A stretch of DNA of 64,000 bases from Candidatus Woesearchaeota archaeon (GCA_964411565.1 CAYPLB010000004.1:32500-96499); one strand, 5' to 3'; positions 7,223 to 52,259 are shown, numbered from the stretch's first letter. The notes: generated from the sequence alone by a model not told the origin. Translations and numbers: made by a program.

Positions 7223-7335
7223 GATTTATAAACAGAACATTATTTTTCTAAACTATGAAATACTTAACTACAGACTCAGTAAGAAGGTCAGGTAGTTAGA
7301 ATTCTGTTAATAATTTATTTTTGGAGGTTTTTATT

Positions 7336-8277
7336 ATGAAAAAAGTTCAAGATTTTAAATGGAAAAAGAATATTACGGTTAAAGATTTAGTGAATGAGCT
7401 AGGTCATGTTGGGTTTCAGAGTATAGAATTGAATAAAGCTTCGGAAGTTTTTGTGAAGATGAAGAAAAATAATGCTAAGATTTTTTTAACATTTACTTCG
7501 AATATGGTTACTTCAGGATTGAGAGGATTCTTTGCACAATTGATAAAATTAGGAATAGCTGATGTTATTGTAACTACAGTTGGTGGTTTAGAAGAAGACT
7601 TTATGAAAGCTACTGGAGAAGAATTTAATATTGGAACTTTTAATAGTGATGATGTTGAATTACATGAACAAGGAATTAATAGAGTTGGTAATTTGACAAT
7701 CAATAATGAAAGTTATATGAATTTTGAAGATAAAATGTCTAGAATTTTACACAAGTTGTATGAAAAGAAGAAAAGATGGGCTGTTTCAGATTTATTGAAA
7801 GAAATAGGTTTAACATTAAATGATGAGAATTCTATTTTGTATCAAGCTGCAAAAAATGATATTCCAATATTTTGTCCTGCAATAACTGATGGAGCTTTTG
7901 GATTCCATTTGTATTTATTTCAACAGAACCATGAAGATTTTGTAGTGGATGTTGTGAAGGATTTTGGAAATATTTTATTGAGTACATCACATGATGAAAA
8001 GAAAGGTGTTATAGCTCTGGGTGGAAGCATTTCTAAGCATCATGCTATACTTTGTACTCTATTGAATGGAGGAGCTGAGTATGCAGTTTATATGACTACA
8101 GCGCAAAAGACTTCAGGTTCAATGTCAGGAGCTACAACTAATGAAGCAAAGTCTTGGGGTAAAGTGAAAGATGATTCAGATATTGCTACAGTTATAGGAG
8201 ATGTTACATTTACTTTCCCAATGGCAATGATTAGAGCTTTGGAAGTTTTAGATGAGGAGGGTTTAATTAATGCCTAA
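7336..8277 (+). CDS. dys: Deoxyhypusine synthase (or homospermidine synthase-like)
   Basis: FTSNMVTSGLR, TTVGGLEED, FCPAITDG, GSMSGA, EAKSWGK with catalytic Lys; SD GGAGG at 7323. Confidence 0.93.
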   Translation: MKKVQDFKWKKNITVKDLVNELGHVGFQSIELNKASEVFVKMKKNNAKIFLTFTSNMVTSGLRGFFAQLIKLGIADVIVTTVGGLEEDFMKATGEEFNIGTFNSDDVELHEQGINRVGNLTINNESYMNFEDKMSRILHKLYEKKKRWAVSDLLKEIGLTLNDENSILYQAAKNDIPIFCPAITDGAFGFHLYLFQQNHEDFVVDVVKDFGNILLSTSHDEKKGVIALGGSISKHHAILCTLLNGGAEYAVYMTTAQKTSGSMSGATTNEAKSWGKVKDDSDIATVIGDVTFTFPMAMIRALEVLDEEGLINA

Positions 8278-10102: not shown

Positions 10103-11884
10103 GTGACTTCTAAGAAAATTGAGGAAGCGAAGATTAAAAGAATTAAAAATAATTCTAAAGACCTTAAGAATATTCTAAATTTAGAAAATAAATTAAGCCT
10201 AAATTTACATGCAATGACAGTTCTTAATGAAAGATATCTTAAAAGAAATAGTAAAGGAGAAGTTGTAGAAAATCCTGAACAAATGTTTAGAAGAGTAGCG
10301 AAGTATGTAGCAAAAGCTGAAAAGAAAGATAAGAAAAAATGGGAAAATGAATTCTTTGAAGTTATGAAGAATTTAGAATTTTTGCCAAATACACCATGTT
10401 TAACAAATGCAGGAACAACTAGAAAACAACTATGTGCTTGTTATGTTTTAGATCTACCTGACTCAATAGAAGATATATTTGAAACATTGAAAAAATCAGC
10501 TTTAATATTTCAGAGTGGAGGAGGAGTAGGATATTCTTTCTCAAAAATTAGACCTGAAGGAAGTTTGATAAAAAGTACAAATAGAGAAGCCTCAGGCCCA
10601 GTTTCATTTATGCATATTTTTGATAAAGCTGCAGAGACTATGAAAAAAGGTGGAATCAGAAGAGCAGCTATGATGGGAGTTTTAAATATTTCTCATTTAG
10701 ATATCTTAGAATTTATTTGTGCAAAAGAAAAAAATAAATTGAAAAATTTTAATATTTCAGTCGCTATTACCGATGATTTTATGAAAAAAGTAATTCATGG
10801 ACAAAATTATTGGTTAAAAGATGAAAAAGGAAATAGAGTGAAGAAATTTAGTTCAAGAGAAGTTTTTGATTTTATTTGTGCAAACTCTTGGGAAAATGGT
10901 GAACCAGGAGTTTTATTTATTGATGAGATTAATAGAAAACATTGTCTTAAGAAAATAAATAAGATTACAGCTATAAATCCTTGTGGAGAAGTCCCACTCC
11001 TTGAAAGAGAATCTTGTTGTTTAGGTTCAGTTAATCTTTCTAAGACTACAAAAAATGGAAAAGTGAATTGGGTAAAATTAGCAAAGTCTGTAAAAATAGG
11101 AGTTAGGTTCTTAGATAATGTTGTATCAGTAAATAAATATCCAACAAAAGAAATAGAATTAATGTGTCTAACAAATAGAAAAATTGGTTTAGGTGTAATG
11201 GGTTGGGCAGATATGTTAATTGAATTAGGAATATCATATGATTCTAAAGAAGCAGTAAAATTAGCTGATAGTGTAATGAAGTTTGTTAAAAAAACAGCAA
11301 TAGAAGAGTCTGAGAAATTAGCTAGAGAAAAAGGAGCATTTCCAAATTATAAAAGAAGTAGTATTAAGAAAAAAAGGAGGAATGCAAGTTTGTTAGCAAT
11401 TGCACCTACAGGTAGTATTAGTATTATTGCAGGTTGTTCATCAGGAATTGAACCTTTGTTTGCTGTAGCTTATATGAGAGAAATATTAAATGGAATGAAA
11501 CTATTGGAAATAAATAAAACATTTGAAGAAATAGCAAGATTTAATGGATTCTATAAAAAAGGTATGATGAAAAATATTGTAAAGAAAGGAACATTAAAAG
11601 GAATACTTAGTGTTCCAAAACCAGTAAAGAAATTATTTGCAACATCATTGGAGATTCCATTAGAGAGACATATAGAGATGCAGGCAGCTTTTCAAAAACA
11701 TGTTGACAATGCAGTATCAAAAACAATAAACTTACCAAATAAGGCAACTATAGGTGATGTAAAGAGAGCATATATGTTGGCTTGGAAGAATAAATGTAAA
11801 GGAATTACAGTTTATAGATATGGTAGTAGAGAAAAACAAGTTTTGTATTTTGGTCAAAAATATTGTAAGAATTGTAAAAATTAA
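10103..11884 (+). CDS. nrdJ: Class II (adenosylcobalamin-dependent) ribonucleotide reductase
   Basis: ERYL, PNTP..NAG, CACY, GGGVG, NPCGE, CLGSVNL, IAPTGSIS, SSGIEP, terminal CxxC; GTG start after SD GAGGTGA. Confidence 0.9.
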   Translation: MTSKKIEEAKIKRIKNNSKDLKNILNLENKLSLNLHAMTVLNERYLKRNSKGEVVENPEQMFRRVAKYVAKAEKKDKKKWENEFFEVMKNLEFLPNTPCLTNAGTTRKQLCACYVLDLPDSIEDIFETLKKSALIFQSGGGVGYSFSKIRPEGSLIKSTNREASGPVSFMHIFDKAAETMKKGGIRRAAMMGVLNISHLDILEFICAKEKNKLKNFNISVAITDDFMKKVIHGQNYWLKDEKGNRVKKFSSREVFDFICANSWENGEPGVLFIDEINRKHCLKKINKITAINPCGEVPLLERESCCLGSVNLSKTTKNGKVNWVKLAKSVKIGVRFLDNVVSVNKYPTKEIELMCLTNRKIGLGVMGWADMLIELGISYDSKEAVKLADSVMKFVKKTAIEESEKLAREKGAFPNYKRSSIKKKRRNASLLAIAPTGSISIIAGCSSGIEPLFAVAYMREILNGMKLLEINKTFEEIARFNGFYKKGMMKNIVKKGTLKGILSVPKPVKKLFATSLEIPLERHIEMQAAFQKHVDNAVSKTINLPNKATIGDVKRAYMLAWKNKCKGITVYRYGSREKQVLYFGQKYCKNCKN

Positions 11885-11904: not shown

Positions 11905-12363
11905 TTATCTTCTCTTCTTCTTTTTAGCTTTTCTTTTAGGCTTTTTCTTTGCAGCTTTTCTCTTAACTTTTTTCTTAGCTTTCTTCTTCACTTTTTTCTT
12001 CTTCTTAACTTTCTTCTTTGCTGCTTTTCGCTTTACCTTTTTCTTTTTAGCCTTTTTCTTTTTAGCTTTTTTCTTGACCTTTCTTTTAACAGCTTTTTTC
12101 TTAGCTTTCTTTTTCTTAGCTTTTTTCTTTTTCTTTTTGCCGCCTCTAGCCATTTTTGTACAAGCTACATTACCTGCTTTATCGATATAGTATAACATTC
12201 CAGGCTCTCTTTTGACGCCACACTTAACAACAACTTGCTGTTTGAATGAACCCTTCATTCCAGGTCTTTTCATCTTTACTCTAGCAACATCACCCTTCTT
12301 ATTTAAGAAGTATAAGTATCCTGCTGCTCTTTTTATCCCACACTTTACAAGAATTTTTCCCAT
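11905..12363 (-). CDS. Tandem Cc1-like chromatin protein with Lys/Ala/Val-rich histone-H1-like tail
   Basis: Two repeats G[IV]KR..G.LY[FY][LI][ND]K.G[DN]VA..KM.R.G followed by ~80 aa of mostly K/A/V; SD GAGGTG before ATG 12363; Cc1 assignment from memory. Confidence 0.65.
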   Translation of the reverse strand: MGKILVKCGIKRAAGYLYFLNKKGDVARVKMKRPGMKGSFKQQVVVKCGVKREPGMLYYIDKAGNVACTKMARGGKKKKKKAKKKKAKKKAVKRKVKKKAKKKKAKKKKVKRKAAKKKVKKKKKVKKKAKKKVKRKAAKKKPKRKAKKKKRR

Positions 12364-12483
12364 TTTTTTCACCTCGTATATTCTAGTTATATAAACTAGT
12401 AAACATATATAGCCCTTGTTAGTATTTAAACTTTATGTTTTCTCGAGGGAAATCTTATATATTTCAAGAACTTGAGAGTTGTT

Positions 12484-13245
12484 ATGTGGGTACATGATTT
12501 GAATCCAGTCTTGTTAAATTTGGGAGGATTGGAGATAAGATACTATGGATTAGTATATGTAATTGGATTTATTTTGAGCATAGTTTGGTTAATGTTTTAT
12601 CGTCGAGAAATAGACTTAAAAAAAGATGAAGTTTATGACTTTGTTTTTTATTTGATGTTAGGTGTAATTGTAGGATCTAGATTGTTCCATGTTGTATTTT
12701 GGGAGCCTAATTATTATTTGTTGGAACCTTGGAAAATATTTTTTCTTTGGGAAGGAGGAATGGCTTACCATGGAGGTTTAGTTGGAGTTGTCGTTGCTGC
12801 TTATTGGTATTGTAAAAATAAAAAAATAAGTTTTTTGAAAGTTGCAGATATTCTAACAGTTCCTGGAATCTTAGCTTTAGGTTTAGGAAGATTAGCCAAT
12901 TTTGTTAATGGAGAGTTAGTAGGCAGAGTAACTGAAGTTGCTTGGTGTGTGGATTTTGGAGATGAGTCTTGTAGACATCCTTATGTTATTTATAGTGCTT
13001 TGAAAAGGTTTGCTATAGGAGGATTTTTGTGGAGTTTATCGTCAATAAAGTTTAAAGAAGGACTTATATTTTGGAGTGGAATTTTGTTGATGGGAATAGG
13101 TAGATTTGTCCTAGATTTCTATAGAGAAGATATATTATATTGGAGTTTTAGTGTTGGACAGTGGATGTCTTTAGCAATGATTATTGTTTCTTTGTTTGTT
13201 TTAGTAAAGAATTATAGCAAGAGTATGAGAAAAATATTTAAATGA
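12484..13245 (+). CDS. lgt: Prolipoprotein diacylglyceryl transferase
   Basis: IRYYG, GSRLFHV, WEGGMAYHGG, GRLANFVNGELVGR, RHP, GRFVLDFYR. Confidence 0.9.
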   Translation: MWVHDLNPVLLNLGGLEIRYYGLVYVIGFILSIVWLMFYRREIDLKKDEVYDFVFYLMLGVIVGSRLFHVVFWEPNYYLLEPWKIFFLWEGGMAYHGGLVGVVVAAYWYCKNKKISFLKVADILTVPGILALGLGRLANFVNGELVGRVTEVAWCVDFGDESCRHPYVIYSALKRFAIGGFLWSLSSIKFKEGLIFWSGILLMGIGRFVLDFYREDILYWSFSVGQWMSLAMIIVSLFVLVKNYSKSMRKIFK

Positions 13246-13251
13246 TAAAAT

Positions 13252-13671
13252 TTGAAAATGTCTCTTATGATAAATTGCGAACAATGTCCGGATGCAGCAT
13301 GTTGTAGAGATGTGACAGTAGAAATAGACGACCCAGATACAGTTGAAGATTGGGATGAAATTAGATGGATGGTTTCCCATAAAAATGTATCAGTTTACAA
13401 GGATGATGAGGATGATTGGTTAGTAGAATTTAAAACACCTTGTGCAAAATTAGATGAAAATGGTAAATGTACAGTTTATGATAAAAGACCTGATATTTGT
13501 AGAGGTCATGCATTAAGTTCTTGTGTGTATAATGGAGAAGGAGAAATTCATAAAATAAGATTCGAAAATGTTGAGGATGTTGAAAAATATATCAAAGAAA
13601 ATGTTCTTGAAAATATGAAAAAAGAAGCTCAAAAAGATCTTGATGAAGTTGAAAAGTGGAACTTAGGTTAA
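13252..13671 (+). CDS. YkgJ-like Cys-cluster (Zn/Fe-chelating) protein
   Basis: CEQCPDAACC ... PCAKLDENGKCTVYDKRPDICR. Confidence 0.85.
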   Translation: MKMSLMINCEQCPDAACCRDVTVEIDDPDTVEDWDEIRWMVSHKNVSVYKDDEDDWLVEFKTPCAKLDENGKCTVYDKRPDICRGHALSSCVYNGEGEIHKIRFENVEDVEKYIKENVLENMKKEAQKDLDEVEKWNLG

Positions 13672-14070: not shown

Positions 14071-15846
14071 TTAAGTATAATAATATTTTCCTTCTTTTTT
14101 TTGTTTAGCGTCTAATTGAGAATTTGGTTGGTTAATCCTAGGTCTGCCAAACTCAGGATCAATTCTAAAAGTAATGTCCAGCATCTTTAGAACTTCGTTC
14201 ATACCTTCTTCTTTTGTTAATGGACCTTTAACATGACCTTCTTTACTAGGCTCACCATTGAAAACTAACATAGAATCTCCAATATAATCTATAAATTGAA
14301 TATCGTGATCGACTACAATTGCACAAGTATCTTGTTTGTTCATAAAATCTCTAATAACCTCAGCTACATGAATTCTATCTTCAACATCAATGAAAGCTGA
14401 AGGCTCGTCAAAAGCATACACATCTGCATCTAAAGATAAAGTTATAGCAACAAATACTTTTTGTAGTTCTCCACCAGATAAATCTGCAATATTAGAGTTA
14501 ATTATTTTCTTTAAGTTTAATTTTTCTAAAATATTTTTCTCAAACCAACCACTCTCTTTGTCTTTAGCATATTTGTGTAACCATTCATTTACAGTTCCAG
14601 CTTCAGGTTTAATGTCTTGAGGTTTGTAAGCAATTTTAATAGTAGAATCAATTTTTCCTTTTGTAGGTTTAATAATACCAGCAAGCATTTTCAAGAAAGT
14701 AGTTTTTCCTAAACCATTTCCACCAGTAATAGTTAAAATCTCACCTTTTCTTAACTCACCAGCATTTACTTTTAATTTGAAAGTTTCAAATTCTTTTTCT
14801 AAATCTGGCCAGGAATATAGTACAGGTCTATTTACATATCTTTCAATACCCTTGTTAAATTTAATTTTATAATCTCTAAATCTAACATTGTCGTCAGGAA
14901 GATATCCATCTAAATATTCATTTATACCTCTTCTTACAGATTTAATTTGTGAAACAATACCATAAACAGCTGCGTCACCATATAAAATTTGTAATTGATC
15001 AGAAATGTAGTCTAAAGTTGCTAAGTCATGTTCAACAACCATAACAGAAGTCTCTTCATTTGCTAAAGCTCTAATTATTTTTGCAACCTTAATCCTGTAA
15101 GTAATATCTAAGAAAGAAGCAGGTTCATCAAAGAAGTAAAAGTTTGCATCTCTAAGTAAAGTTGCTGCAATAGCTAGCCTCTGTAATTCTCCTCCAGAAA
15201 GAGCTGAAACTTCTCTATCAAATAATTTTTTTAGATCTAATTTTTCTGAAATTTCTTCAAGTTTATTATTCTCATTAGATTTGTCTAAAAGTTCTTTAAC
15301 AGTCCCTTCAATTTGAGTTGGAATTAAATGTACAGCTTGAGGTTTGTAAGCAATCTTTACTTGTTTAGCTTTTAATTTTTTTAAGAAACTTTGAATCTCT
15401 GATCCCCTGTACATGTTGATAAGTTCGTCAATTTTTGGATCTTCTTTTTTTGAATCTCCAAGATTAGGAGTTAATGAATTTGATAATATTTTTAGAGCAG
15501 TACTTTTACCAATACCATTTCTACCTAAAATACCTAAAACTTTTCCTGAAGAAGGTAAAGGTAAATTGTATAATATAAAAGAATCTTGACCATATCTATG
15601 AATAGGTTTTTGAGTTAGTTTATCAGGAAGCTTAACCATGTGAATAGCTCCAAAAGGACATACATTTACACAAATGCTACAAACACCAGTACAAAGTTCT
15701 TCATTAATCTGAGCTTTGCCATCTGGACCTTTTGTAATAGCTTCCTGTCCTTGTCTATTTAGAGGACACATTCTCATACAAAGATAATCTCCACAAGACA
15801 AGGGATTACATTTATCCTTTTCTACTACAGCTATTCGTTTAACCAT
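14071..15846 (-). CDS. rli: ABCE1/Rli1 ribosome recycling ATPase
   Basis: N-terminal Fe-S cysteines (C..C...C..CP; CTGVC.IC..VCPF), two ABC cassettes (GRNGIGKS, LSGGELQ; GGNGLGKT); true start ATG 15846 (MVKRIAVV). Confidence 0.96.
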   Translation of the reverse strand: MVKRIAVVEKDKCNPLSCGDYLCMRMCPLNRQGQEAITKGPDGKAQINEELCTGVCSICVNVCPFGAIHMVKLPDKLTQKPIHRYGQDSFILYNLPLPSSGKVLGILGRNGIGKSTALKILSNSLTPNLGDSKKEDPKIDELINMYRGSEIQSFLKKLKAKQVKIAYKPQAVHLIPTQIEGTVKELLDKSNENNKLEEISEKLDLKKLFDREVSALSGGELQRLAIAATLLRDANFYFFDEPASFLDITYRIKVAKIIRALANEETSVMVVEHDLATLDYISDQLQILYGDAAVYGIVSQIKSVRRGINEYLDGYLPDDNVRFRDYKIKFNKGIERYVNRPVLYSWPDLEKEFETFKLKVNAGELRKGEILTITGGNGLGKTTFLKMLAGIIKPTKGKIDSTIKIAYKPQDIKPEAGTVNEWLHKYAKDKESGWFEKNILEKLNLKKIINSNIADLSGGELQKVFVAITLSLDADVYAFDEPSAFIDVEDRIHVAEVIRDFMNKQDTCAIVVDHDIQFIDYIGDSMLVFNGEPSKEGHVKGPLTKEEGMNEVLKMLDITFRIDPEFGRPRINQPNSQLDAKQKKEGKYYYT

Positions 15847-15896
15847 GCTTAGAAAGATAAATTGAAGATTTTTAAGTGTTGTGGGAGAGAAAATAC

Positions 15897-16949
15897 TCAT
15901 TTATGATAAACAGTTTGGGAAGGGAAAGCTAAATCTAATTTATTTTTATTAAATTGTTTTAAAATCCCCATATTAACTTCTGTTTGAGTTTCTAAAATAT
16001 TTGAAGATTTCTTAATAAAATAAGTTAAAGAAATGTTCATTGAAGAATCAGCAAACTCTGAAAATGCAACAGTTATTTTTTTCTCTAAATTTTTATTCTT
16101 TGAAGCTATTTCTTTTAAGATTTTCATAGCCTTTTCCATTTGTTTTTCAGTAGTATCATAAGTTAAACCTAAGATAATTTTTACCTTCCTAGAAGGTTCT
16201 AAAGAAATATTCTCAACAGGATTTTCTGAAAACTTAGAATTTGGAATTGTAACAACTCTTCCTTCTAAAGTTACTAACCTAGTACTCCTTAAACCAATTT
16301 CTTTTACTGTACCATCAATACCAGAAATAATAATTCTGTCTCCTATTTTGAAAGGTTTGTCTGCAAAAATAGTAAAACCACCAAATATATTTGAAAGAGT
16401 ATCCTTAGCAGCCATTGCAAAAGCTAAACCTCCAATACCTAAACCAGCTAACAAAGCTCCAACATTGTAACCAGCATTATTTAGTGCAATAATAATAGCA
16501 ATAGTCCATACAATAATCTTTACACCTTTTCTTAAAACAGGTAAAAGTTGATCATCTAAATCAGTTTCAGTTTTTTCAGATAAAGGAATTATGTATTCTT
16601 TAAAGAAAGCATCAAATAATCTTGTTAACAACCAAGCTATATTTGCAATGATCAAAGCTTGAAAAATACTTCCAATTACTGAATCTACAGCTGTTGAAAA
16701 AGATAAAAATCTTAAAGCAAACCAAATTCCTGCTAAAGTCAAAGCTAGAAGAATTGGTTCTTCAATCATATCTATAATAATATCATCAATTTTAGTTTTT
16801 GTTTTTTTAGTTAATTTTTTTAAAACATTAGAAGATATCCAATAAAGAATTTTTCCAGTTAATATAGCACAAAATATTAAAATAAATGCAAATAACCATA
16901 CCTCAATCTGATTACCATAAAAGGTTTTTGTTAAAATATCTTCAAACAT
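15897..16949 (-). CDS. mscS: Small-conductance mechanosensitive channel
   Basis: LLAGLGIGGLAFAMAAKDTLSN, KPFKIGD, GTVKEIGLRST, IPNS. Confidence 0.93.
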   Translation of the reverse strand: MFEDILTKTFYGNQIEVWLFAFILIFCAILTGKILYWISSNVLKKLTKKTKTKIDDIIIDMIEEPILLALTLAGIWFALRFLSFSTAVDSVIGSIFQALIIANIAWLLTRLFDAFFKEYIIPLSEKTETDLDDQLLPVLRKGVKIIVWTIAIIIALNNAGYNVGALLAGLGIGGLAFAMAAKDTLSNIFGGFTIFADKPFKIGDRIIISGIDGTVKEIGLRSTRLVTLEGRVVTIPNSKFSENPVENISLEPSRKVKIILGLTYDTTEKQMEKAMKILKEIASKNKNLEKKITVAFSEFADSSMNISLTYFIKKSSNILETQTEVNMGILKQFNKNKLDLAFPSQTVYHK

Positions 16950-17165: not shown

Positions 17166-17717
17166 TTATATCATAGAAACTTTATTCATTGTATCTCCAG
17201 CCCTTAACTCATCTACAACATCCATTCCTTCAATAACTTCTCCAAAGACAGCATAACCTTCATCTAAGAAAGTATTATCAGCTAAGTTTACAAAGAATTG
17301 AGAACTTGCACTATTTGGATCATTTGACCTTGCCATACCAACTGTTCCTCTGGAATGAGATTTGCCAATAACTTCTAATTCAATTGAATCTTCACTTCCA
17401 CCAGTCCCATCACCATTTGGATCTCCACCCTGAATTACAAATCCAGGTTCATATCTGTGGAAAGTTAAACTATCATAAAATCCTTCTTCTACAAGCTTAA
17501 GAAAGTTGTTCGTAGATATTGGTGTGTCTTCATATAAACCAATTGTAAAATCACCTTTATTGGTTTCAACCTTTACCTTGTAAGTATAATCCATTTCTTC
17601 TGTCTCCTCTTGAACTACTTCTTCAGTTTCTACTTCCTCAGTTTCTACTTCTTCAGTTTGTCCAGTAGAACAAGCTACTAAAAAAATTAGTAAGAATAAA
17701 ATTATTATCTTTTTCAT
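17166..17717 (-). CDS. Cyclophilin-type peptidyl-prolyl isomerase with lipoprotein signal peptide
   Basis: FYDSLTFHRYEPGFVIQGGDP, GTVGMAR, ASSQFFVN, YAVFGEV; N-terminal MKK-hydrophobic-LVAC lipobox. Confidence 0.92.
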   Translation of the reverse strand: MKKIIILFLLIFLVACSTGQTEEVETEEVETEEVVQEETEEMDYTYKVKVETNKGDFTIGLYEDTPISTNNFLKLVEEGFYDSLTFHRYEPGFVIQGGDPNGDGTGGSEDSIELEVIGKSHSRGTVGMARSNDPNSASSQFFVNLADNTFLDEGYAVFGEVIEGMDVVDELRAGDTMNKVSMI

Positions 17718-20653: not shown

Positions 20654-21307
20654 ATGAGAGAAACAATATTAACGTTAGGAATTGCAGTCGCAGGATGTTT
20701 AGAATCAGGTTGTTCAGATTATGCCCTGAATAGAGTTAATGAAAATGAGGTTTCTGAATATATAGAAGCTACTGAAGATACTGGAGAAGATTTAGAAAGT
20801 TATGATCCTTGTGATTCTTATGATGCTGGATGGAATGTATCTCCAAGTGGAGATGAAAGACCAAGTTGTTATGCAATTAAAAGTAATTTAGAAAGAATTA
20901 ATGAAGAAGATAATACAATTATTTGTACAACTATTGATTATAGAGCATGTTTTGATAATTATGGTACAATAGAAATGGTTATGAACAATAAAGAAATATT
21001 TGGTACAACTGGATATATAGCTTCACAAGCTACATGTAATGGAGAACCAGGATTTCTAAGTTTTTGTTTTATTGGAGATAATTATGAGAATGGAGAACAA
21101 ATGAGTACAGCAAATGCATATGCTGATTTTGATTTATGGCTAATTTCTCAAGAAGAAGAAGATAAAATGGAAGAAGAGGGAGTAGTATTTTTATCTGAGA
21201 AAGAAGAATATATTACAGAAAATCATGCAGGAGAACAATTATTTGGAGTTGTTGAATGTAGAAATGATGAACATTATGTTAGTGATTGTTCTGGTGCAAT
21301 TTATTAA
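20654..21307 (+). CDS. Acidic putative lipoprotein/exported protein
   Basis: N-terminal hydrophobic stretch with VAGC (and SGC); several Cys, strongly acidic. Confidence 0.65.
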   Translation: MRETILTLGIAVAGCLESGCSDYALNRVNENEVSEYIEATEDTGEDLESYDPCDSYDAGWNVSPSGDERPSCYAIKSNLERINEEDNTIICTTIDYRACFDNYGTIEMVMNNKEIFGTTGYIASQATCNGEPGFLSFCFIGDNYENGEQMSTANAYADFDLWLISQEEEDKMEEEGVVFLSEKEEYITENHAGEQLFGVVECRNDEHYVSDCSGAIY

Positions 21308-21446: not shown

Positions 21447-21893
21447 ATGAAATGTCCATACTGCGCAAGCCCAGAAATCAAAGTTCTAGACAAAAGGAAT
21501 ACTGAAGAAGGGAAATCAATAAGAAGGCGAAGAGAGTGTTTGGGCTGTAACAAAAGATTTACAACATATGAAAGAGTTGAAGAATTTCCTGTTTATGTTA
21601 TAAAAAGAGATGGAAGAAAAGAACCCTTTTGTAGAGTTAAACTCAAAGAAGGTTTTGTAAGAGCCTTCGAAAAAAGACCAGTGACAATGGAAGTAATAGA
21701 TAATATTGTTGATGGATTACAGAGAAAAGTAAGAAACTATAAAGTAAATGAAATTGAAAGTAAAGTGTTGGGGAAATGGGTCTTAAGTTTGTTGAAAAAA
21801 ACTGATAAAATTGCTTATATCAGGTATGCTTCAATACACAAAGATATTGGAGATATACAAGAACTTGAAGCCGAAATACAAAAAATAATTTAG
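21447..21893 (+). CDS. nrdR: Transcriptional repressor NrdR
   Basis: MKCPYC...IRRRRECLGCNKRFTTYE Zn ribbon, ATP cone (VIKRDGRKEPF), AYIRYAS. Confidence 0.95.
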   Translation: MKCPYCASPEIKVLDKRNTEEGKSIRRRRECLGCNKRFTTYERVEEFPVYVIKRDGRKEPFCRVKLKEGFVRAFEKRPVTMEVIDNIVDGLQRKVRNYKVNEIESKVLGKWVLSLLKKTDKIAYIRYASIHKDIGDIQELEAEIQKII

Positions 21894-21903
21894 GGGAGTA
21901 AAA

Positions 21904-24900
21904 ATGGTATCACATGTAAAAAAAAGAGATGGAAGTATTATTCTTTTTAACAAAGAAAGAATAGCAGAAGCAATATTCAGTGCTATGAAAGCAACTGGAG
22001 TAGGCAATAAAGAAATGGCAAAAGAACTTGCACAGAAAGTTGCAAGAATAGTAGAAGAAAGAAATCCTTATCAAATTCCTTCAGTCGAAGATATTCAAGA
22101 TTGTATTGAAGATGTGTTAATAAAAGAAGGTGAACAAGGAATAGCAAAAGCCTTTATTATTTATAGAGAAAATAGAAGAAGAGAAAGAGAAAGTAAGAAA
22201 GTTCTTCTAGATGTTGAAGGTACTATGAAAGAATATCTTGATCAAATTGATTGGAGAGTAAATGAAAATAGTAATGTTGGTTTTTCTCTTGGTGGTTTGA
22301 TTTTATATATATCTGGAAAAATTACAGCTAATTATTGGTTGAATAATATTTATCCTGCTGAAATAAAAAATGCACATGTTAATGGAGATTTTCACTTACA
22401 TGATTTGAGTATGTTTAGCGGATATTCATTTTATAGAAATGAAGTTATTGTAGTTAGAGATAAGAAAACAAAAAGTCCATTAGTATTAAGTTTTGAACAA
22501 TTATATAAGTTAACTCAATCTAAAGTTGATCATGAAAATGGGTTTGAGATTAAGTATACAAATGAATATGAGATATTTGATGAAAAAGGTTGGACAGATC
22601 TTAAAAGAGTTCTTAGACATAAAACAACAAAACCATTAATTTCATTGAACACTTTTAATGGGAAAAACTTAGTTGTGACAAATGATCATCCTTTTATTAC
22701 ATTAGAAGATGAAAAACAAATTATTTCCTGTCCTGGATGTGAAGGAAATAATGTTATAAAGAATAGAACAAATAAAATTGGAAAAGATTATTTTAAGTGT
22801 AAATCTTGTGAACAAAGGTTTGGTTTAGATAAAGAAACTTTGCCAAATTTGAGTAAAAGAAAAGAGATAAAAGCAGAGGAAGTAAAATTAACTAACTATG
22901 CATTAACTCCTGCATTTGAAATTGAACAAAATTTTAAAGATAATTTAAGTGTAGAAGATGGATGGTTTGTAGGACTTTTTATTGCTGAAGGATATTTTAA
23001 AGATAAAAATTTAGTTTTTGAAATGTCAGATAGTAGAGAATTTAGAAAGTTAGTGAATTATTTAGTTTATTCTGAAGTAGATTTTAACTTGAATAGTAAT
23101 AAAAGTAATTCAGGAATGCAAATGATTCAAGAAGGGAATAATATCTTGTACATAAAAACTATTTCTTTATCTGAAGAGTTACAAGAGATAATATCACAAA
23201 TAAGACCTTATGCATATAATAAAAATTTGCCAATGAATATGTTAAGTATTAAGTCAGAAGTTATCGGAGCAATGATCTCAGGAGTAATTGACGGAGATGG
23301 AGTAATTAGAAATGATGACCCATGGGTTTCAAGAGCTAATTTAAGGATGACTTCAAAAACTCTTTTAAGTCAAATTCAATTTTGGTTAGAATTAGAAGGA
23401 ATAAATTCTTCTTTGTTAACTATTGATGGATATGGAGAAAGAGAATATAAAGGACTAATAATAAAACCAAGTAAACAACTATATTCATTAACATTCTATA
23501 TTCCTGAAAGAAAAAAGAAATTATTTACAGAATGTTTGAAGATAGATAGTAGTTTTAAATATTCTAAAAGAGATTCATATAAACTTAAATCTCATTCACA
23601 TTTTAGAAAGATTGAAGCTATCGAAAATGATGATGAATATGTCTATGATATTACAACTGAAACAAGAACTTTTAATTGTAATGGAATGTTAGCTCATAAT
23701 TGTGCGGGCTGGTCATTAAGACAACTCTTAGAAGAAGGTTTTGGAGGAGTTTATGGAAAATTACAAACAAAACAACCAAAACATTTTGATACAGTAATTG
23801 GACAAATGGTTAACTTCTTAGGTACTATGCAGAATGAATGGGCAGGAGCACAAGCTTTGTCATCTGTTGATACTTATCTTGCTCCTTATGTAAGAGTAGA
23901 TAATATGACTTACAAACAAGTTAAACAACAAATGCAAAGACTGCTTTTTAACATAGCTACACCTAGTAGATGGGGAACACAAACACCATTTATTAATTTT
24001 ACATTTGATTGGACAGTTCCTGAAGATATGAGAGAAGAAAAAGTAATAATTGCTGGACAAAGACAAGAATCAAAATATAAAGATTATCAAAAAGAAATGG
24101 ATATGATCAATAGAGCTTTTATGGAATGTATGATGGAAGGAGATGCTGATGGAAGAATATTTACATTCCCAATTCCTACATATAACATTACAAAAGATTT
24201 TGATTGGGATAGTGAAAATTCAAACATGTTATTTGAAATGACATCAAAATATGGTATCCCTTATTTCCAAAATTTTGTTAATAGTGAATTGAAACCGACA
24301 GATGTAAGAAGTATGTGTTGTAGATTGCAATTAGATGTTAGAGAACTGAGAAATAAAACTGGAGGATTGTTTGGTTCAGGAGAAAATACAGGATCTATTG
24401 GAGTTGTTACAATTAATCTTCCAAGATTAGGAGAAGTAAGCAAAAGTAGAGAAGAATTCTTTAGAAGATTAGGAATACTTATGGATATGGGGAAAAATTC
24501 TTTAGAAATTAAAAGAAAAGTTGTTACAAGATATATGGAATATGGATTGTTGCCATTCACAAAAAGATATCTAGAAAACTTAGACCACCATTTTTCAACA
24601 ATAGGATTAATTGGAATGAATGAATGTTGTTTGAATTTCTTGAAAAAAGATATGATTGAAAAAGAAGGAAGAGATTTTGCAATTGAAGTCTTAGATTTTA
24701 TGAGATCAAAATTACAACAATACCAAGAAGAAACTGGACATATTTACAATTTAGAAGCTACCCCAGGAGAAGGTACTAGTTATAGATTAGCTAGAATCGA
24801 TAAGATGAAATATCCAAATATTATTACAGCTGGAGATGAAGAACCATATTATACAAATAGTTCACAACTTCCAGTAAATGCAACAGATGATATTTTTGAA

Positions 24901-25164
24901 GCATTGGATAGCCAAGAAGAATTACAATGTAAGTATACTGGTGGAACAGTATTTCATTGTTTTATTGGAGAAAAAATAGATGATGTAGAAGCGTGTAAAA
25001 AATTAGTTAAGAGGATTGCACATACATATAGAATCCCTTACTATACAATAACTCCAACATTTAGTATTTGTCCAGAACATGGATACATTGCAGGAGAACA
25101 TCATGAATGTCCTTATGAAGCAGTTGTTAAAGTAAAAGGAGGTGAAAAAAATGAGCAAATGTGA
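21904..25164 (+). CDS. nrdD: Class III anaerobic ribonucleotide reductase large chain (ATP cone, intein-containing, lacks glycyl-radical C-terminus)
   Basis: VKKRDG ATP cone, HLHDL..GY|CAGWSL, QNEWAGAQA, RSMCCRL, GSIGVVTINL, EATPGE, YTGGT, TPTFSICPEHG. Confidence 0.93.
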   Translation: MVSHVKKRDGSIILFNKERIAEAIFSAMKATGVGNKEMAKELAQKVARIVEERNPYQIPSVEDIQDCIEDVLIKEGEQGIAKAFIIYRENRRRERESKKVLLDVEGTMKEYLDQIDWRVNENSNVGFSLGGLILYISGKITANYWLNNIYPAEIKNAHVNGDFHLHDLSMFSGYSFYRNEVIVVRDKKTKSPLVLSFEQLYKLTQSKVDHENGFEIKYTNEYEIFDEKGWTDLKRVLRHKTTKPLISLNTFNGKNLVVTNDHPFITLEDEKQIISCPGCEGNNVIKNRTNKIGKDYFKCKSCEQRFGLDKETLPNLSKRKEIKAEEVKLTNYALTPAFEIEQNFKDNLSVEDGWFVGLFIAEGYFKDKNLVFEMSDSREFRKLVNYLVYSEVDFNLNSNKSNSGMQMIQEGNNILYIKTISLSEELQEIISQIRPYAYNKNLPMNMLSIKSEVIGAMISGVIDGDGVIRNDDPWVSRANLRMTSKTLLSQIQFWLELEGINSSLLTIDGYGEREYKGLIIKPSKQLYSLTFYIPERKKKLFTECLKIDSSFKYSKRDSYKLKSHSHFRKIEAIENDDEYVYDITTETRTFNCNGMLAHNCAGWSLRQLLEEGFGGVYGKLQTKQPKHFDTVIGQMVNFLGTMQNEWAGAQALSSVDTYLAPYVRVDNMTYKQVKQQMQRLLFNIATPSRWGTQTPFINFTFDWTVPEDMREEKVIIAGQRQESKYKDYQKEMDMINRAFMECMMEGDADGRIFTFPIPTYNITKDFDWDSENSNMLFEMTSKYGIPYFQNFVNSELKPTDVRSMCCRLQLDVRELRNKTGGLFGSGENTGSIGVVTINLPRLGEVSKSREEFFRRLGILMDMGKNSLEIKRKVVTRYMEYGLLPFTKRYLENLDHHFSTIGLIGMNECCLNFLKKDMIEKEGRDFAIEVLDFMRSKLQQYQEETGHIYNLEATPGEGTSYRLARIDKMKYPNIITAGDEEPYYTNSSQLPVNATDDIFEALDSQEELQCKYTGGTVFHCFIGEKIDDVEACKKLVKRIAHTYRIPYYTITPTFSICPEHGYIAGEHHECPYEAVVKVKGGEKNEQM
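22426..23700 (+). mobile_element. Intein (425 aa) with LAGLIDADG endonuclease in NrdD
   Basis: Begins S (SFYRNEV), block B VTNDHPF, LAGLIDADG-like WFVGLFIAEG and MISGVIDGDG, ends VYDITT...GMLAHN, then extein Cys. Confidence 0.92.
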
Positions 25165-38850: not shown

Positions 38851-39168
38851 ATGAAGGAATACTTGATGTTAACAAGTTTAGTCTTAAGTTCATGTTCATT
38901 AAGTCATAATATAATTGGTAGTTTTGATGATGCAAGAGATGTTATTATAATTGAAAATGTAGGAAAAGATAAAAATTTAAATCCTTGTGATGCTTTATAT
39001 TTTCCACATAGTCAAGATTGTATTGTAGAATGTTATGATAGATTTATGAATGAAAAATTGATAGGATTTCCTTTATATCCAGATTATGATAATTTGTATG
39101 AAAGATATTGTCCTGAAGATTTATATTTAAGAGATTCTATTTATTTAGCACATCAATTAAAACAATAA
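38851..39168 (+). CDS. Small putative lipoprotein
   Basis: MKEYLMLTSLVLSSC lipobox-like N-terminus. Confidence 0.55.
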   Translation: MKEYLMLTSLVLSSCSLSHNIIGSFDDARDVIIIENVGKDKNLNPCDALYFPHSQDCIVECYDRFMNEKLIGFPLYPDYDNLYERYCPEDLYLRDSIYLAHQLKQ

Positions 39169-47906: not shown

Positions 47907-50900
47907 TTAATTGAATTCTTTTTCGAATTCAAATTCTTCTTCTCTATTTCTATCATCTCTTTCTTCGTCTTCTCTACCTTCACCATCATCAAAAACAAGA
48001 CCCATTAATTCCATTGCTCTACCCATATCACCAAATGAACTAACTCTTATGTCTCCAGTAGCTATTGCTGCAGCAAACATTGCACCTTGTTTTCCTCTAT
48101 TAATTGTCTCTTGTATAACTTCACCAAAACCCCTTTCAATCCAATCAGGATGCTCTAACCTAAGTTCTTTCTCTGTAGTAGAAATCATATTGTAAATGAA
48201 ATCAAATTCTATTGTAACTGAAACATCTTCCTGACCAGCAAAGTCTTCTCCAGGTGTAATTTGTAATAAATCTGCTTCTGAAACACTTACACCTACAACA
48301 TAAATATCTTCTCCTTCATCAACAAATCTAACAACACCATCTGTTGGACCATAGTCTTCTAAATAAAATTGGATATCTTCTATTTTTATTGGATCATATT
48401 TATAATCCTCAGGATTTTTTCTCTCAGGACCAGGAATCTCACCAGCAGCCATTGCATCTGCAAATTCTTGTTTTAAGAATTCTTCAGGAGGGAAAATCCA
48501 AACTTCCATATAAGGAGTATATATATCTAAATCAAATCGGTCAACATAGCCCCACTCTTCATAGATTTTAATTTCACCTGTTGAAGATTCATCTTTATAA
48601 GAAAGAGAGATAGGATTTACTTCTGGGAATTCCTGTCCTAAACATTGTGAAGACATAGCTAATTGTCTAGTGTTGTCAACTAAAGCAACCCAATAAATTT
48701 CATAAACACCAGAAATATATTTTTCCCATTCCTCAGAATTTGGATTTACATAGTTTGTAAAATACCAAGCAAATAATTCTTCATTTAAGGAAGCTTCTAA
48801 TTCTTCTCTTTGAAGTAAAGCATTTTCTAATTCCCATTCACACCAAGAGTTATGCCCATGACCATCCCTATATTGATTAATTTCATCAAAAGGTTCTCCC
48901 CAAGAATCAAAGTTTAAGTAACTATCAACTTGGCCATCAGTATGTTTAACACATCCTCCTGAGAATGAAACTGAACCTTTATTTTCTGTCCAGGAACCAC
49001 CTTGGAAACAACCATAATTTAATACAACTGAAGGATTGTTTTGATCACAAATAGGTGCTGAACAATCATCATTGGAAGTACAAGCTTGACACTGTTCTGT
49101 TGATTCACAAGTCCACCAAACACCATCACAATTATAGTAACCTTCTTCACATTGACAACTTCCACCTATCTCATCACAGTATTGGTTTTCTCCACAACCT
49201 CCTCCACAAATTTCTCTTTCACCACCACAAGTAGGATCTGCAGATTCACAACCATCTTCATCATAACCTCTACCATTGTTACTGTTACAATCAGTATAAC
49301 CATAGTCACAATAACACTCACCTTCAAATTTGTCACATTTTTGGTTTGCGTTACAATCATTATCTGATTCACATAAATCTCCTTCTTGGTAAAAATTTCC
49401 AGTTATTTTGAAAAAGTAACCAGTAATTGCTGAGAACATTCCTGTAACTTCATTTTCTACTGGAGTTTCTTCCTCAACTACTTCTTCAACTTGTTCTTCA
49501 ACAATCTCTTCCTCAACTACTTCCTCAACTACTTCCTCAACTTCTTCTTCAACTACTTCTTCAACTTGTTCATCTTCAGTAGGTAAATGTTCGGGTTCAA
49601 CTTCAGGAGCTTTAGGTCCTTCACCACAATCTTCTATACAATAAGATTCTTCACCTGAATCACAAATACCATCACCACAAATTATATCATAAAAACAATC
49701 ATCAAGACAAACTCCAGGTTCACCTTCTTCACAAATATTGTTTCCACAAACAGAAGAAGGTTCGCAATCATCATAACAAGTATCTTCTTCACCAAAGTCA
49801 CAAATACCATCACCACAATAAGATTCAATTTCTAAATCAACACAAACCCCATTAACACAAACATCACTAGGATTTGTACAGTCAGATGCTAAAGTACATG
49901 TTTCTCCTGTTGAATCATCATCAATACAATAACTATCTACACATATTTTTCCATATTCACAATCATCATCTATTTCACATTCATTTTGTAAAGTACAAAG
50001 ACCATATTGGCAGAAAGAACCTTCAGAACAATCTTCATCAAATTCACAAATATCTACACATTCGCCTTCGATAAGTTTTTGATTTTCTTCACAAATATTT
50101 ACAATACCTTCATCTTGACATTCACCTTCATAACAAATTAATGAAACACCACAAGATTGTAATCTACAATCAACTAAATCACTACAATCAACTAAATAAT
50201 CTTCATCGTTATCAACCCCATCATCACAAATTTCATCTGCTCCTCCACAAGAATCTGTAGATTCACAAGTTGCATCACCATCACAGTCATAGTAACCAGC
50301 TTTACAGACACAAATATCATCCTGTAACATTTGGTTTTCTCCACAGATAGAAGATTCGTCACAAGGAACTGTTTGTTTTACTTCTTCACCATTGAATTGA
50401 CAAGTATATATTGTACAAGGATAAGGTTGGGATACTCCATCACAAAAATAAGTTGTGTCTTCACAAGGATAATCTTGTTTTCCACCACCACAATAAAAAT
50501 TTACATTTTGATCACATAAACTTTTACATACTTCTTGTTGAGACCCAGTTTCAGAAATTTGTTCACAAACAGAATAACATTGTGCATTGTAAGGAGTCAT
50601 ACAATCAGAACAAGTTTGACATTCATCAATACAAGCTTCGGGATCTTCTGTGTACATTAATGTACATTCTTCACAAGAAGAACATTCTTCAGAACAATCA
50701 TCTTTGGAATGTTGAGAATTTTCACATTCAACACAAGCAGAACAAAAGTCTTGAGATTTACAATTGTTTACACATTCATTACAACCTGAACTTTCACAAA
50801 TGGAATCACAATCTTGAGTATCCCAATCACAATCCCAACATTCATCACAAGTGGATTTACAATTATCACCATAACAAGACCAACAACTTTCCTCACACAC

Positions 50901-52259
50901 AGGTTCACAAACTCTTCCACAATCATTAGCACAATCAGGATCATCACAATCTGTTACAGTATCTCCATCATTGTCTACACCATCATCACAAATTTCATCA
51001 CCACCTAAAGCATTTGTACATGAACCTTCAATACAAGCATCTTGTGTTATGTCACATTTTTCATAAGAAATTTCTCTACACCAAGCATTTTGATTAGTAA
51101 TAGTATTTTCAACTAATCTATTTTCCCATCTCATTTCAGTAACAGTTTCTTTATCATAACCATATTCTGAAAGAACATTTAAAATTCTTGATAACACATC
51201 ATTATAATTATCAATATTTCCATCTTCATGCCAAACGTTTTTTTCTAACATATGTCCAATAACAAAATTTAACTCTTCTACAACAGCATAAACTGAAGAC
51301 ATAGAACCTCTATCTTCATCAACTTGATTAGCATTTTTATAAATATCTTGTAACAAGTGTCTAAGTCTAGTTTCTAGTTCGTCAAGAGTGTAATCTTTAA
51401 ATTCATATTCTTCATAATTTAATTCATAACCATAATAATCACCTTCTTCTGGAAACATTCCTCCGAAGTATTCGTCTCTTCCCCAAGCATTTATCCAAGG
51501 ATGTTCGCAACCATTGTCACAATTTGGAGTTTGTAGTTCAATTATAAAATTTAAATTATCTCCCTCATAGATGTAGGAATTATAACGATCTCTTTCTTCT
51601 TCATATACAGCTCCAGAAAATAAGTTTGAAATTGAATCTTCACAATTATCTCTATTTTCTTCCATGTAAGAATCTAAAACACTTTGGTACTCTTGCATTC
51701 TATTTGCAACTTCTTCAGCTGAGACTTGACCATTATAATAAGCTGTTGCAATACTTTTTACATCTGAAACCATTTCAGAAGGATCTAAATCAAAATTATT
51801 TTTGAAGATTACTCTAAAATCAGTCCAATAAAAAACAGTTTGAGTTTCTTCACCAGTTAATACATGGGGCCAAGCATTAAAGGTGATTTTTATTTTGTGT
51901 CCATCATAAAGGACTTTTTCAAAAGAAGGTAAGGCTTCATCAAGAAATACATCTCTTTCTTCGTTCATACTCCAAGCATGTTTAGTATAATGTTGAGGCC
52001 GACCAAAGAAAGATTCAGCAGCTTCGGCAGTTATTCCTCCAGGACCATGTTCTTCAAATTTAAACTCACCAAGGTTTTGATTAATGTCATTTTTTATTAT
52101 TGTTGACAACATCATAAGTTGTGCATAGTTTAAATTTCCTCTTTCATACTCTAATGCAGTATCAGTGAGAACTTCGATTTGTTCATTTACTGTTTCTTGT
52201 GAAGAAACAAATGGTACGACCAACAATATTAGTATAATAAATAATAGCCCCTTTTTCAT
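47907..52259 (-). CDS. Large secreted Cys-rich acidic surface protein
   Basis: Signal peptide; CDDGVDND repeats, EGF-like and CGDGICD repeats, Glu-rich linker. Confidence 0.85.
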   Translation of the reverse strand: MKKGLLFIILILLVVPFVSSQETVNEQIEVLTDTALEYERGNLNYAQLMMLSTIIKNDINQNLGEFKFEEHGPGGITAEAAESFFGRPQHYTKHAWSMNEERDVFLDEALPSFEKVLYDGHKIKITFNAWPHVLTGEETQTVFYWTDFRVIFKNNFDLDPSEMVSDVKSIATAYYNGQVSAEEVANRMQEYQSVLDSYMEENRDNCEDSISNLFSGAVYEEERDRYNSYIYEGDNLNFIIELQTPNCDNGCEHPWINAWGRDEYFGGMFPEEGDYYGYELNYEEYEFKDYTLDELETRLRHLLQDIYKNANQVDEDRGSMSSVYAVVEELNFVIGHMLEKNVWHEDGNIDNYNDVLSRILNVLSEYGYDKETVTEMRWENRLVENTITNQNAWCREISYEKCDITQDACIEGSCTNALGGDEICDDGVDNDGDTVTDCDDPDCANDCGRVCEPVCEESCWSCYGDNCKSTCDECWDCDWDTQDCDSICESSGCNECVNNCKSQDFCSACVECENSQHSKDDCSEECSSCEECTLMYTEDPEACIDECQTCSDCMTPYNAQCYSVCEQISETGSQQEVCKSLCDQNVNFYCGGGKQDYPCEDTTYFCDGVSQPYPCTIYTCQFNGEEVKQTVPCDESSICGENQMLQDDICVCKAGYYDCDGDATCESTDSCGGADEICDDGVDNDEDYLVDCSDLVDCRLQSCGVSLICYEGECQDEGIVNICEENQKLIEGECVDICEFDEDCSEGSFCQYGLCTLQNECEIDDDCEYGKICVDSYCIDDDSTGETCTLASDCTNPSDVCVNGVCVDLEIESYCGDGICDFGEEDTCYDDCEPSSVCGNNICEEGEPGVCLDDCFYDIICGDGICDSGEESYCIEDCGEGPKAPEVEPEHLPTEDEQVEEVVEEEVEEVVEEVVEEEIVEEQVEEVVEEETPVENEVTGMFSAITGYFFKITGNFYQEGDLCESDNDCNANQKCDKFEGECYCDYGYTDCNSNNGRGYDEDGCESADPTCGGEREICGGGCGENQYCDEIGGSCQCEEGYYNCDGVWWTCESTEQCQACTSNDDCSAPICDQNNPSVVLNYGCFQGGSWTENKGSVSFSGGCVKHTDGQVDSYLNFDSWGEPFDEINQYRDGHGHNSWCEWELENALLQREELEASLNEELFAWYFTNYVNPNSEEWEKYISGVYEIYWVALVDNTRQLAMSSQCLGQEFPEVNPISLSYKDESSTGEIKIYEEWGYVDRFDLDIYTPYMEVWIFPPEEFLKQEFADAMAAGEIPGPERKNPEDYKYDPIKIEDIQFYLEDYGPTDGVVRFVDEGEDIYVVGVSVSEADLLQITPGEDFAGQEDVSVTIEFDFIYNMISTTEKELRLEHPDWIERGFGEVIQETINRGKQGAMFAAAIATGDIRVSSFGDMGRAMELMGLVFDDGEGREDEERDDRNREEEFEFEKEFN

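Follow-up and report, generated by a model that had tools for sequence, protein, structure and literature searches.

In the lyso-form pathway of Firmicutes (Enterococcus faecalis, Bacillus cereus; 7B0O, PMC8275575), lipoproteins are matured by three enzyme families together, Lgt, Lsp and Lit, and Lit moves the ester-bound sn-2 acyl chain onto the lipidated cysteine's amino group via an eight-membered intermediate (PMC8275575). The first of these, Lgt (prolipoprotein diacylglyceryl transferase), is known structurally from E. coli (5AZB/5AZC), where Y26/H103GG/R143/R239-type residues were found by Mao et al. to be essential or central to catalysis, the HGGL motif is the proposed peptide-binding site, and Y26 and R143 bond to ester oxygens (PMC4728403). 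In archaea, lipid anchoring of lipobox cysteines at the cell surface is known through AliA/AliB of Haloferax volcanii (arCOG02177/02178, DUF63; PMC12462473, PMC13631571), AliA being linked to thioether-bound archaeol, and the discoverers of AliA/AliB noted that some archaea are rich in predicted lipoproteins without either protein, implying an undiscovered lipidation pathway. Here, a 64,000-nucleotide stretch of a Candidatus Woesearchaeota archaeon genome (GCA_964411565.1, CAYPLB010000004.1:32500-96499; hereafter the window) was analysed, centred on an lgt gene at positions 12484-13245, plus strand. We put at roughly 0.8 the probability that this Lgt is functional and opens a complete lipoprotein maturation pathway, derived from bacteria, in a marine Woesearchaeota-type DPANN archaeon (Nanoarchaeota/Nanobdellota in GTDB). 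Two reviews (2018, 2022) and two papers (2025, August 2026) state that no homologues of Lgt, Lsp or further bacterial lipoprotein enzymes have been reported from archaea (PMC6098224, PMC7613921, PMC12462473, PMC13631571), in a full-text literature search no paper connected Woesearchaeota, Nanoarchaeota or DPANN with either Lgt or LspA other than in calling them absent, and lipoproteins go unmentioned in a paper on DPANN genomes from oxygen-deficient zones (PMC10936187).

The lgt reading frame spans 12472/12484-13245 (plus strand), and the ATG at 12484 is preferred as its start on the basis of gene callers in other assemblies and of homologue N-termini (consensus MW.HNLNPV), giving a 253-residue protein with seven predicted transmembrane helices. 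The protein matched Pfam LGT (PF01790) at 206.9 bits (cut-off 24.9) over model positions 1-239 of 240 and scored 177 bits on the NCBIfam equivalog TIGR00544, whose cut-off is 118.9; its sole solved relative by sequence was E. coli Lgt (5azb, E 6e-30, identity ~30%). An AlphaFold2 model, built with a multiple sequence alignment of 56 homologues (pLDDT 91.5, pTM 0.85), has the seven-helix Lgt fold with arms and head, with an L6-7 loop that is shorter than in the bacterial enzymes and without equivalents of W256 and Y259, and 5azb was its single significant match in the PDB (template-modelling score 0.84 on the query and 0.76 on the target, E 6.9e-14). The preliminary description of the window, which had placed an Lgt at 12484-13245, was correct in this respect.

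Residues were compared by aligning E. coli MG1655 lgt with 119 close archaeal homologues, and E. coli numbering is used throughout. The window Lgt carries Y26, H103-G-G, D129, G142, R143, N146, N149, E151, G154, R239 and R246, all of which are invariant or nearly so among the 119 homologues, with strict invariance of R143, N146, N149, E151 and G154 of the signature motif. That motif, G142-R-L-G-N-F-I-N-G-E-L-W-G154, reads GRLANFVNGELVG in the window Lgt, so that G-R-x-x-N-F-x-N-x-E-x-x-G is common to the archaeal and the E. coli enzyme, as are the full H103-G-G-L motif and, among single residues, Y26, D129, R143, R239 and R246. As judged from these signatures, the window gene is a true member of the Lgt family, with a lineage-specific donor pocket that is described below.

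The genome that holds the window (G000; 1.0 Mb, 19 contigs, completeness 100%, contamination 0.63%) also encodes the two partner enzymes. A search for lspA returned G000:C6:12175-12603 (minus strand; PF01252, 103.8 bits), which aligned to S. aureus LspA (6ryo, E 3e-15) and has both catalytic Asp motifs, GNFIDR and FNLAD. Lit was found at G000:C2:69369-69923 (plus strand; PF07314, 66.1 bits, cut-off 24) and matched B. cereus Lit (7b0o) with an E-value of 7e-11, having H64 and H128 in the places of H85 and H153 as well as a conserved aromatic cage, and both catalytic histidines were invariant across 11 archaeal Lits (the organism's own and 10 others). No Lnt was found in the genome by phmmer with the E. 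coli seed. The set thus resembles the Firmicutes lyso-form pathway in having the three enzyme families together, in the Lit His-His dyad and aromatic cage, in the missing Lnt and in the single membrane, and differs from it in the archaeal host, in what would be an external lipid source, and in a frequent lit-lgt-glutaredoxin gene cluster. Lit is patchy in bacteria, being present in one of 10 bacterial control genomes, versus 74% of this archaeal phylum.

Among 61 relatives, lit lies at most about 150 bp from lgt in 11 (G004, G007, G012, G014, G017, G022, G023, G026, G028, G030 and G042), lspA and lit are adjacent in G040, and the order lit-lgt-glutaredoxin recurs at many of the relatives' loci. 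This cluster, with glutaredoxin as its last gene, was seen at loci L003, L009, L010, L013, L014, L035 and L112-L114. In the organism's own genome the three-gene cluster is broken: lit is followed by glutaredoxin on contig C2 (G000:C2:69369-70162; glutaredoxin of 80 residues, CHWC, PF00462, 69.5 bits), and lgt lies beside a gene for a CxxCxxCC metal-binding protein. The pairing is puzzling, glutaredoxin being a cytoplasmic thiol oxidoreductase, yet tied here to enzymes whose target, a Cys thiol, lies outside the membrane.

Phyletic counts were made over 301 genomes of the phylum, each at least 90% complete. Lgt was present in 264, LspA in 265 and Lit in 222 genomes; 254 had Lgt and LspA, 10 Lgt only, 11 LspA only and 26 neither (odds ratio 60, p 6e-21, by a Fisher test that ignores shared ancestry, on co-occurrences tallied by hand from match lists), and 221 of the 222 Lit genomes had Lgt and/or LspA. 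The statement in the preliminary description that Lgt is normally absent from archaea does not hold for this lineage, where its presence is the rule and not a local acquisition. Several genomes had more than one Lgt match (G239, six; G054, four, including weak ones at 73-77 bits; G112 and G228, three each), which points to expansion of the family and possibly to functional divergence. At one locus (L034; DUFZ01000069.1, Woesearchaeota UBA10194) the Lgt frame is apparently split into 1465-2085 and 2807-2998, on the same strand and ~700 bp apart, for which an insertion, a frameshift or faulty assembly could account.

The known archaeal route shows the opposite distribution. AliA (arCOG02177) proteins are given as 'DUF63' in Supplementary Data 4 of the AliA/AliB preprint, and Pfam DUF63 (PF01889) was found in only nine of the 301 genomes, G113 being one of them, and none of the nine has Lgt, LspA or Lit; all nine fall among the 26 genomes without Lgt and LspA (p 6e-11, Fisher test as above). 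A Pfam search gave no DUF63 match in the organism's own genome or in any of the 275 genomes bearing Lgt or LspA, and the positive controls (H. volcanii, M. jannaschii, M. acetivorans) were matched. The Lgt-LspA-Lit pattern and AliA are thus mutually exclusive in the phylum. In the table of Hong et al., AliA is scored 1 for N. equitans and Nanobsidianus, and AliA and AliB are both scored 0 for all Woese- and Pacearchaeota genomes, with 12-60 predicted lipoproteins in Woesearchaeota. AliA/AliB are like the window pathway in anchoring a lipobox Cys by lipid at the archaeal surface and in using a substrate signal of the same type, and unlike it in having no detectable homology to the window Lgt and in the link of AliA to thioether-bound archaeol.

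Candidate substrates were called by applying a PROSITE PS51257-type lipobox rule to open reading frames (ORFs). Three ORFs that had been read as carrying lipobox-like cysteines are indeed in the window and pass the rule: a cyclophilin-type peptidyl-prolyl isomerase and predicted lipoprotein at 17166-17717 (minus strand; PF00160, 152 bits; LVAC, Cys16; MKKIIILFLLIFLVAC, then S), a Cys-rich acidic predicted lipoprotein with no Pfam family at 20654-21307 (plus strand; VAGC, Cys15; MRETILTLGIAVAGC, then L), and a 105-residue predicted lipoprotein with no Pfam family at 38851-39168 (plus strand; LSSC, Cys15; MKEYLMLTSLVLSSC, then S). Over the whole genome, 23 of 1148 ORFs fit the rule, about 20 of them convincingly, and Cys at +1 was enriched 3- to 6-fold over polar residues after allowing for amino-acid frequency. 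The proteins include a serpin, DUF3179, isochorismatase-like, DJ-1/PfpI, redoxin and cyclophilin members, and as judged from these families they are typical exported enzymes. The serpin (G000:C1:61351-62580, minus strand) is full-length (PF00079, 402 bits), has a lipobox of textbook form, LFGC, and would be a lipid-anchored protease inhibitor on a DPANN cell surface.

For comparison, three closed genomes of the phylum were treated together with the organism's own by the same ORF caller and rule. The closed genome with Lgt and LspA (G037) had 18 lipobox ORFs among 892, versus one in 600 and one in 682 for the two closed genomes that have no Lgt, LspA or Lit (G113, G289). Lipobox ORFs thus number ~20 per 1000 in the two Lgt-positive genomes versus ~1.5 per 1000 in the two Lgt-negative ones, a 10-fold difference (p 3e-7) that stands against counts of control patterns with a polar residue in place of Cys (p 2e-4).

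The origin of the gene was addressed with a maximum-likelihood tree, in which 26 archaeal Lgts formed one clade (ultrafast bootstrap 98, SH-aLRT 91, present in 99% of bootstrap trees) against 75 bacterial Lgts, a sample fetched by pattern that is mainly Proteobacteria, Nitrospirota and Desulfobacterota and has no Firmicutes or Actinobacteria. A quick tree likewise gave a single archaeal clade, and a single ancient acquisition is well supported by these topologies. The closest bacterial matches (Geobacteraceae, Nitrospiraceae; 37-43% identity) resemble the window Lgt to about the same degree as the more distant archaeal ones do, and an Lgt of the candidate phyla radiation (Peribacteria) is a weak, long-branched sister.

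Since Lgt is a hallmark bacterial gene, and since one 61%-identical homologue is labelled '[bacterium]' in an NCBI record, the locus was also considered as a possible artefact of contamination with bacterial DNA, of chimerism of the contig or of a single recent transfer. The contig carries archaeal markers on both sides of lgt: ABCE1/RLI (14071-15900, minus strand; Fer4_RLI and two ABC_tran domains), an archaeal-eukaryotic marker 0.8 kb away, deoxyhypusine synthase (7321-8277, plus strand; PF01916, 330.9 bits), another such marker 4 kb away, an ATP-dependent DNA ligase (699-2429), and aRF1 (58238-59728, plus strand; eRF1 domains 1-3, with an intein within domain 2). GC content is 26-30% across the window, the same Lgt protein is found unchanged among the gene calls of 22 metagenome contigs, and separate JGI and ENA assemblies share one gene order: ribonucleotide reductase (RNR), basic protein, LGT, CxxCxxCC, SET, ABCE1, MscS and cyclophilin. 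A 1.4-kb stretch of the window was 92-100% present in seven marine or seawater DNA runs, and 39% in an eighth, and the genome is abundant in marine waters deficient in oxygen. NCBI entries for homologues bear the name 'prolipoprotein diacylglyceryl transferase', with '[Candidatus Woesearchaeota archaeon]' or '[Nanoarchaeota archaeon]' as the organism. Contamination, and the chimerism that the preliminary description had raised as a refuting condition, are ruled out, as far as sequence data can tell, by the flanking markers, the uniform base composition, the identical synteny in independent assemblies and the presence across the phylum, single-contig genomes included, and a recent single transfer is ruled out by the 264 of 301 genomes and the monophyletic archaeal clade. 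An artefact of any of these kinds is accordingly hardly credible.

The lipid supply of the organism was examined by two kinds of search of its own genome. GGGPS, CarS, CdsA and PlsC-type acyltransferase were not found with Pfam hidden Markov models (HMMs), and phmmer with E. coli seeds found none of PlsX, PlsY, PlsC, CdsA, FabH/D/G/F/Z, AcpP, IspU, Cfa or Lnt, with lgt, bacA and thyA recovered as positive controls; the single weak pgsA-like match is a CDP-alcohol transferase fusion. By these searches de novo lipid synthesis was ruled out, and no recognisable lipid-synthesis gene is present. Among 31 genomes (the organism's own and 30 relatives), Pfam searches found GGGPS in none, CarS in three and PlsC-type acyltransferase in seven. 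Lipid genes are patchy among close relatives (G001, G006, G010 and G016; loci L121-L125); within the organism's own genus, a PlsC-type acyltransferase (G001:C22:5982-6377, 53 bits) occurs in a genome that is 65% complete and not in the two complete ones. DPANN genomes from oxygen-deficient zones include some Woesearchaeota with Fab genes and cyclopropane-fatty-acyl-phospholipid synthase (PMC10936187), unlike the present genome, in which phmmer found neither. As phospholipid synthesis genes are not recognisable, the donor lipid would therefore have to come from outside the cell.

Several observations weigh against a functional, pathway-committed Lgt, among them the donor pocket. Relative to E. 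coli, the window Lgt has G145 replaced by A, E202 by S, Y235 by M and E243 by D, so that all three residues of the E202/Y235/E243 hydrogen-bond network at the second phosphatidylglycerol (PG) site are substituted, and G145A and changes to the E202/Y235 network inactivate E. coli Lgt (PMC4728403). The window subclade (support 100/97) is marked by Y80W, G138A, G145A, E202S/A, Y235M/E/L, E243D and the short L6-7 loop. The earlier impression that the essential motifs are intact thus stands for HGG, R143, N146, E151, R239 and the other conserved residues, but not for G145, E202, Y235 and E243. Position 145 is A in 117 of the 119 archaeal homologues and also in 20 of the 75 sampled bacteria; Y80, Y235 and E243 are kept in 15 of 26 sampled archaeal Lgts and in 75 of 75 bacterial ones, of which 73 have E or Q at position 202. 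In the E. coli structure the substituted positions line the pocket for the glycerol backbone of the second PG (PMC4728403), which points to a lineage-specific donor pocket. The changes would reflect either a remodelled pocket or, less likely, altered activity, and the substitution of the network residues is lineage-specific, leaving family membership unaffected while it may affect donor specificity.

Further points on the same side are that lgt, lspA and lit lie on three separate contigs, with no operon support within the organism's own genome; that RNA runs of the same two studies contained none of lgt's words and metatranscriptome contigs nothing from the locus (in four RNA runs compared with 12 kb, only low-complexity matches were seen, in the lysine-rich gene beside lgt, a result that bears on expression in neither direction); that lipid genes are judged to be missing on the strength of HMM and seed searches, made on an assembly of 19 contigs; that the co-occurrence statistics are hand-tallied and blind to shared ancestry, as stated; and that the bacterial tree sample is biased, so that strict monophyly is supported against the sampled bacteria, not against bacteria at large, and no donor lineage is singled out.

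The pocket residues unlike those of E. coli, together with a second mycobacterial Lgt paralogue that is thought inactive or divergent (PMC12462473), would fit a conserved Lgt homologue with another job, such as remodelling scavenged phospholipids or modifying a non-protein acceptor. Such a job is quite improbable: Lgt closely accompanies LspA and Lit, whose only substrates are lipidated lipobox proteins; relatives have lit-lgt operons; lipobox ORFs are 10-fold commoner in Lgt-positive than in Lgt-negative genomes; and the HGGL motif is invariant.

Identity of the donor bears on a further alternative, in which the same pathway runs on an archaeal ether lipid (host archaetidylglycerol), Lgt being adapted to the opposite glycerol stereochemistry and to ether bonds, and Lit having a different role or none. 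The organism is archaeal, and CarS occurs in three of the 31 genomes. In those DPANN whose hosts are known, lipids are taken from the archaeal host. Lipid uptake of DPANN from archaeal hosts is discussed in PMC10936187, and a passage of PMC12462473 cites Natronomonas halocyanin as carrying thioether-linked archaeol, so that archaeol-Cys would be chemically feasible. Replacement of residues at the glycerol and sn-chain pocket (E202, Y235, G145, L6-7) is also as expected for a changed donor, but about half of the archaeal Lgts retain the bacterial pocket residues, and Y26 and R143, the ester-oxygen contacts in E. coli, are invariant. Lit is kept in the 222 genomes with both catalytic histidines, often in an operon with lgt, and the sole known Lit reaction needs an ester-bound sn-2 acyl chain, which is absent from an ether lipid (PMC8275575), and the lineages that bear AliA, linked to archaeol attachment, have no Lgt. 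With these points taken together, the ether-donor version of the pathway is considered rather unlikely. As to the donor itself, ester-linked, bacterial-type phosphatidylglycerol appears somewhat likelier than archaetidylglycerol, because Lit chemistry needs the ester-bound chain.

In the proposed bacterial-type pathway, Sec-exported preproteins would bear a lipobox, [LVI][ASTVI][GAS]C, and Lgt would take an anionic glycerophospholipid of the membrane as donor and attach its glyceryl-lipid moiety to the thiol of the Cys, by means of the conserved R143/R239, the HGGL motif and the GR..NF.N.E..G signature. LspA would then cut the signal peptide before the lipidated Cys, and Lit would produce a lyso-form lipoprotein by shifting the sn-2 chain onto the alpha-amino group so freed. 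The donor lipid would be scavenged by a cell unable to make phospholipids, and the pathway would have been gained once from bacteria, early in the phylum, inherited vertically thereafter, and would replace the archaeal AliA (DUF63) route. What the sequence data show is the identity and fold of the gene product, its kept catalytic residues, the phyletic pattern, the synteny and the presence of substrates, whereas we infer the nature of the donor and, from the bacterial systems, the enzymatic activity and the order of steps. The suggestion of a bacterial-style lipidation pathway in an archaeon, possibly on host-derived lipids, made in the preliminary description, is supported by lspA, the single archaeal clade that a phylogeny now gives against the sampled bacteria, the non-chimeric contig and the absent lipid genes, and is extended by Lit and by the exclusion of AliA.

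The immediate surroundings of lgt in the window were also annotated. A TATA-like box, cttatatatt (12455-12464, plus strand), lies ~20-29 nt upstream of the lgt ATG and may be an archaeal promoter, from which a leaderless transcript or one with a short leader would start, the evidence being weak because the genome has 28% GC. The CxxCxxCC metal-binding protein gene (13252-13671, plus strand; PF03692, 35.9 bits) begins 6 nt past the lgt stop, is in the same place in all independent assemblies of the species, and is probably co-transcribed with lgt. Neither it nor the SET and basic-protein genes were found beside lgt in other genera, and these neighbours are therefore probably not linked to lgt in function. 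The window lgt differs from that of E. coli also in being unlinked to thyA and in having as its host an archaeon apparently unable to make phospholipids. Directly upstream of lgt and divergent from it, a 155-residue protein (11905-12372, minus strand) has no Pfam family, is kept in all assemblies of the species, and bears a duplicated ~40-residue N-terminal motif (KCG.KR..G.LY...K.G.V) and a ~75-residue K/A/R/V-repeat tail. A second RNR is found just upstream of lgt at 10103-11884. Elsewhere in the window, 21447-25164 (plus strand) encodes a bacterial-type NrdR repressor (Zn ribbon and ATP-cone) followed by the anaerobic RNR NrdD, which is split by an intein with a LAGLIDADG domain, and a 1450-residue ORF at 47907-52259 (minus strand) has no Pfam match and marks the only region of the window with raised GC (0.32-0.345), with reversed GC skew.

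The gene itself belongs to a known family, and public databases already label such proteins Lgt. The novelty lies in recognising that a whole archaeal phylum appears to use, instead of AliA, the three-enzyme pathway of bacteria, run on scavenged lipids. The Lgt-LspA-Lit module would identify the undiscovered lipidation pathway of the largest DPANN radiation. With it, the 'missing' archaeal signal peptidase II and the working of a bacterial membrane enzyme in an archaeal cell become testable, as do the lipids of uncultured DPANN, since the presence of a lipid-dependent enzyme trio in a genome gives a clue to what the membrane is made of and to the kind of host. It is further proposed, tentatively and at less than even odds, that most Woese- and Pacearchaeota-type DPANN build their surfaces on scavenged ester-linked phospholipids of bacterial type, probably from bacterial hosts, with the window Lgt pocket as a secondary donor shift. 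If so, the near-universal, operon-linked Lgt-LspA-Lit set would be a genomic marker of scavenged bacterial lipids, and the lipid divide would have been breached by theft.

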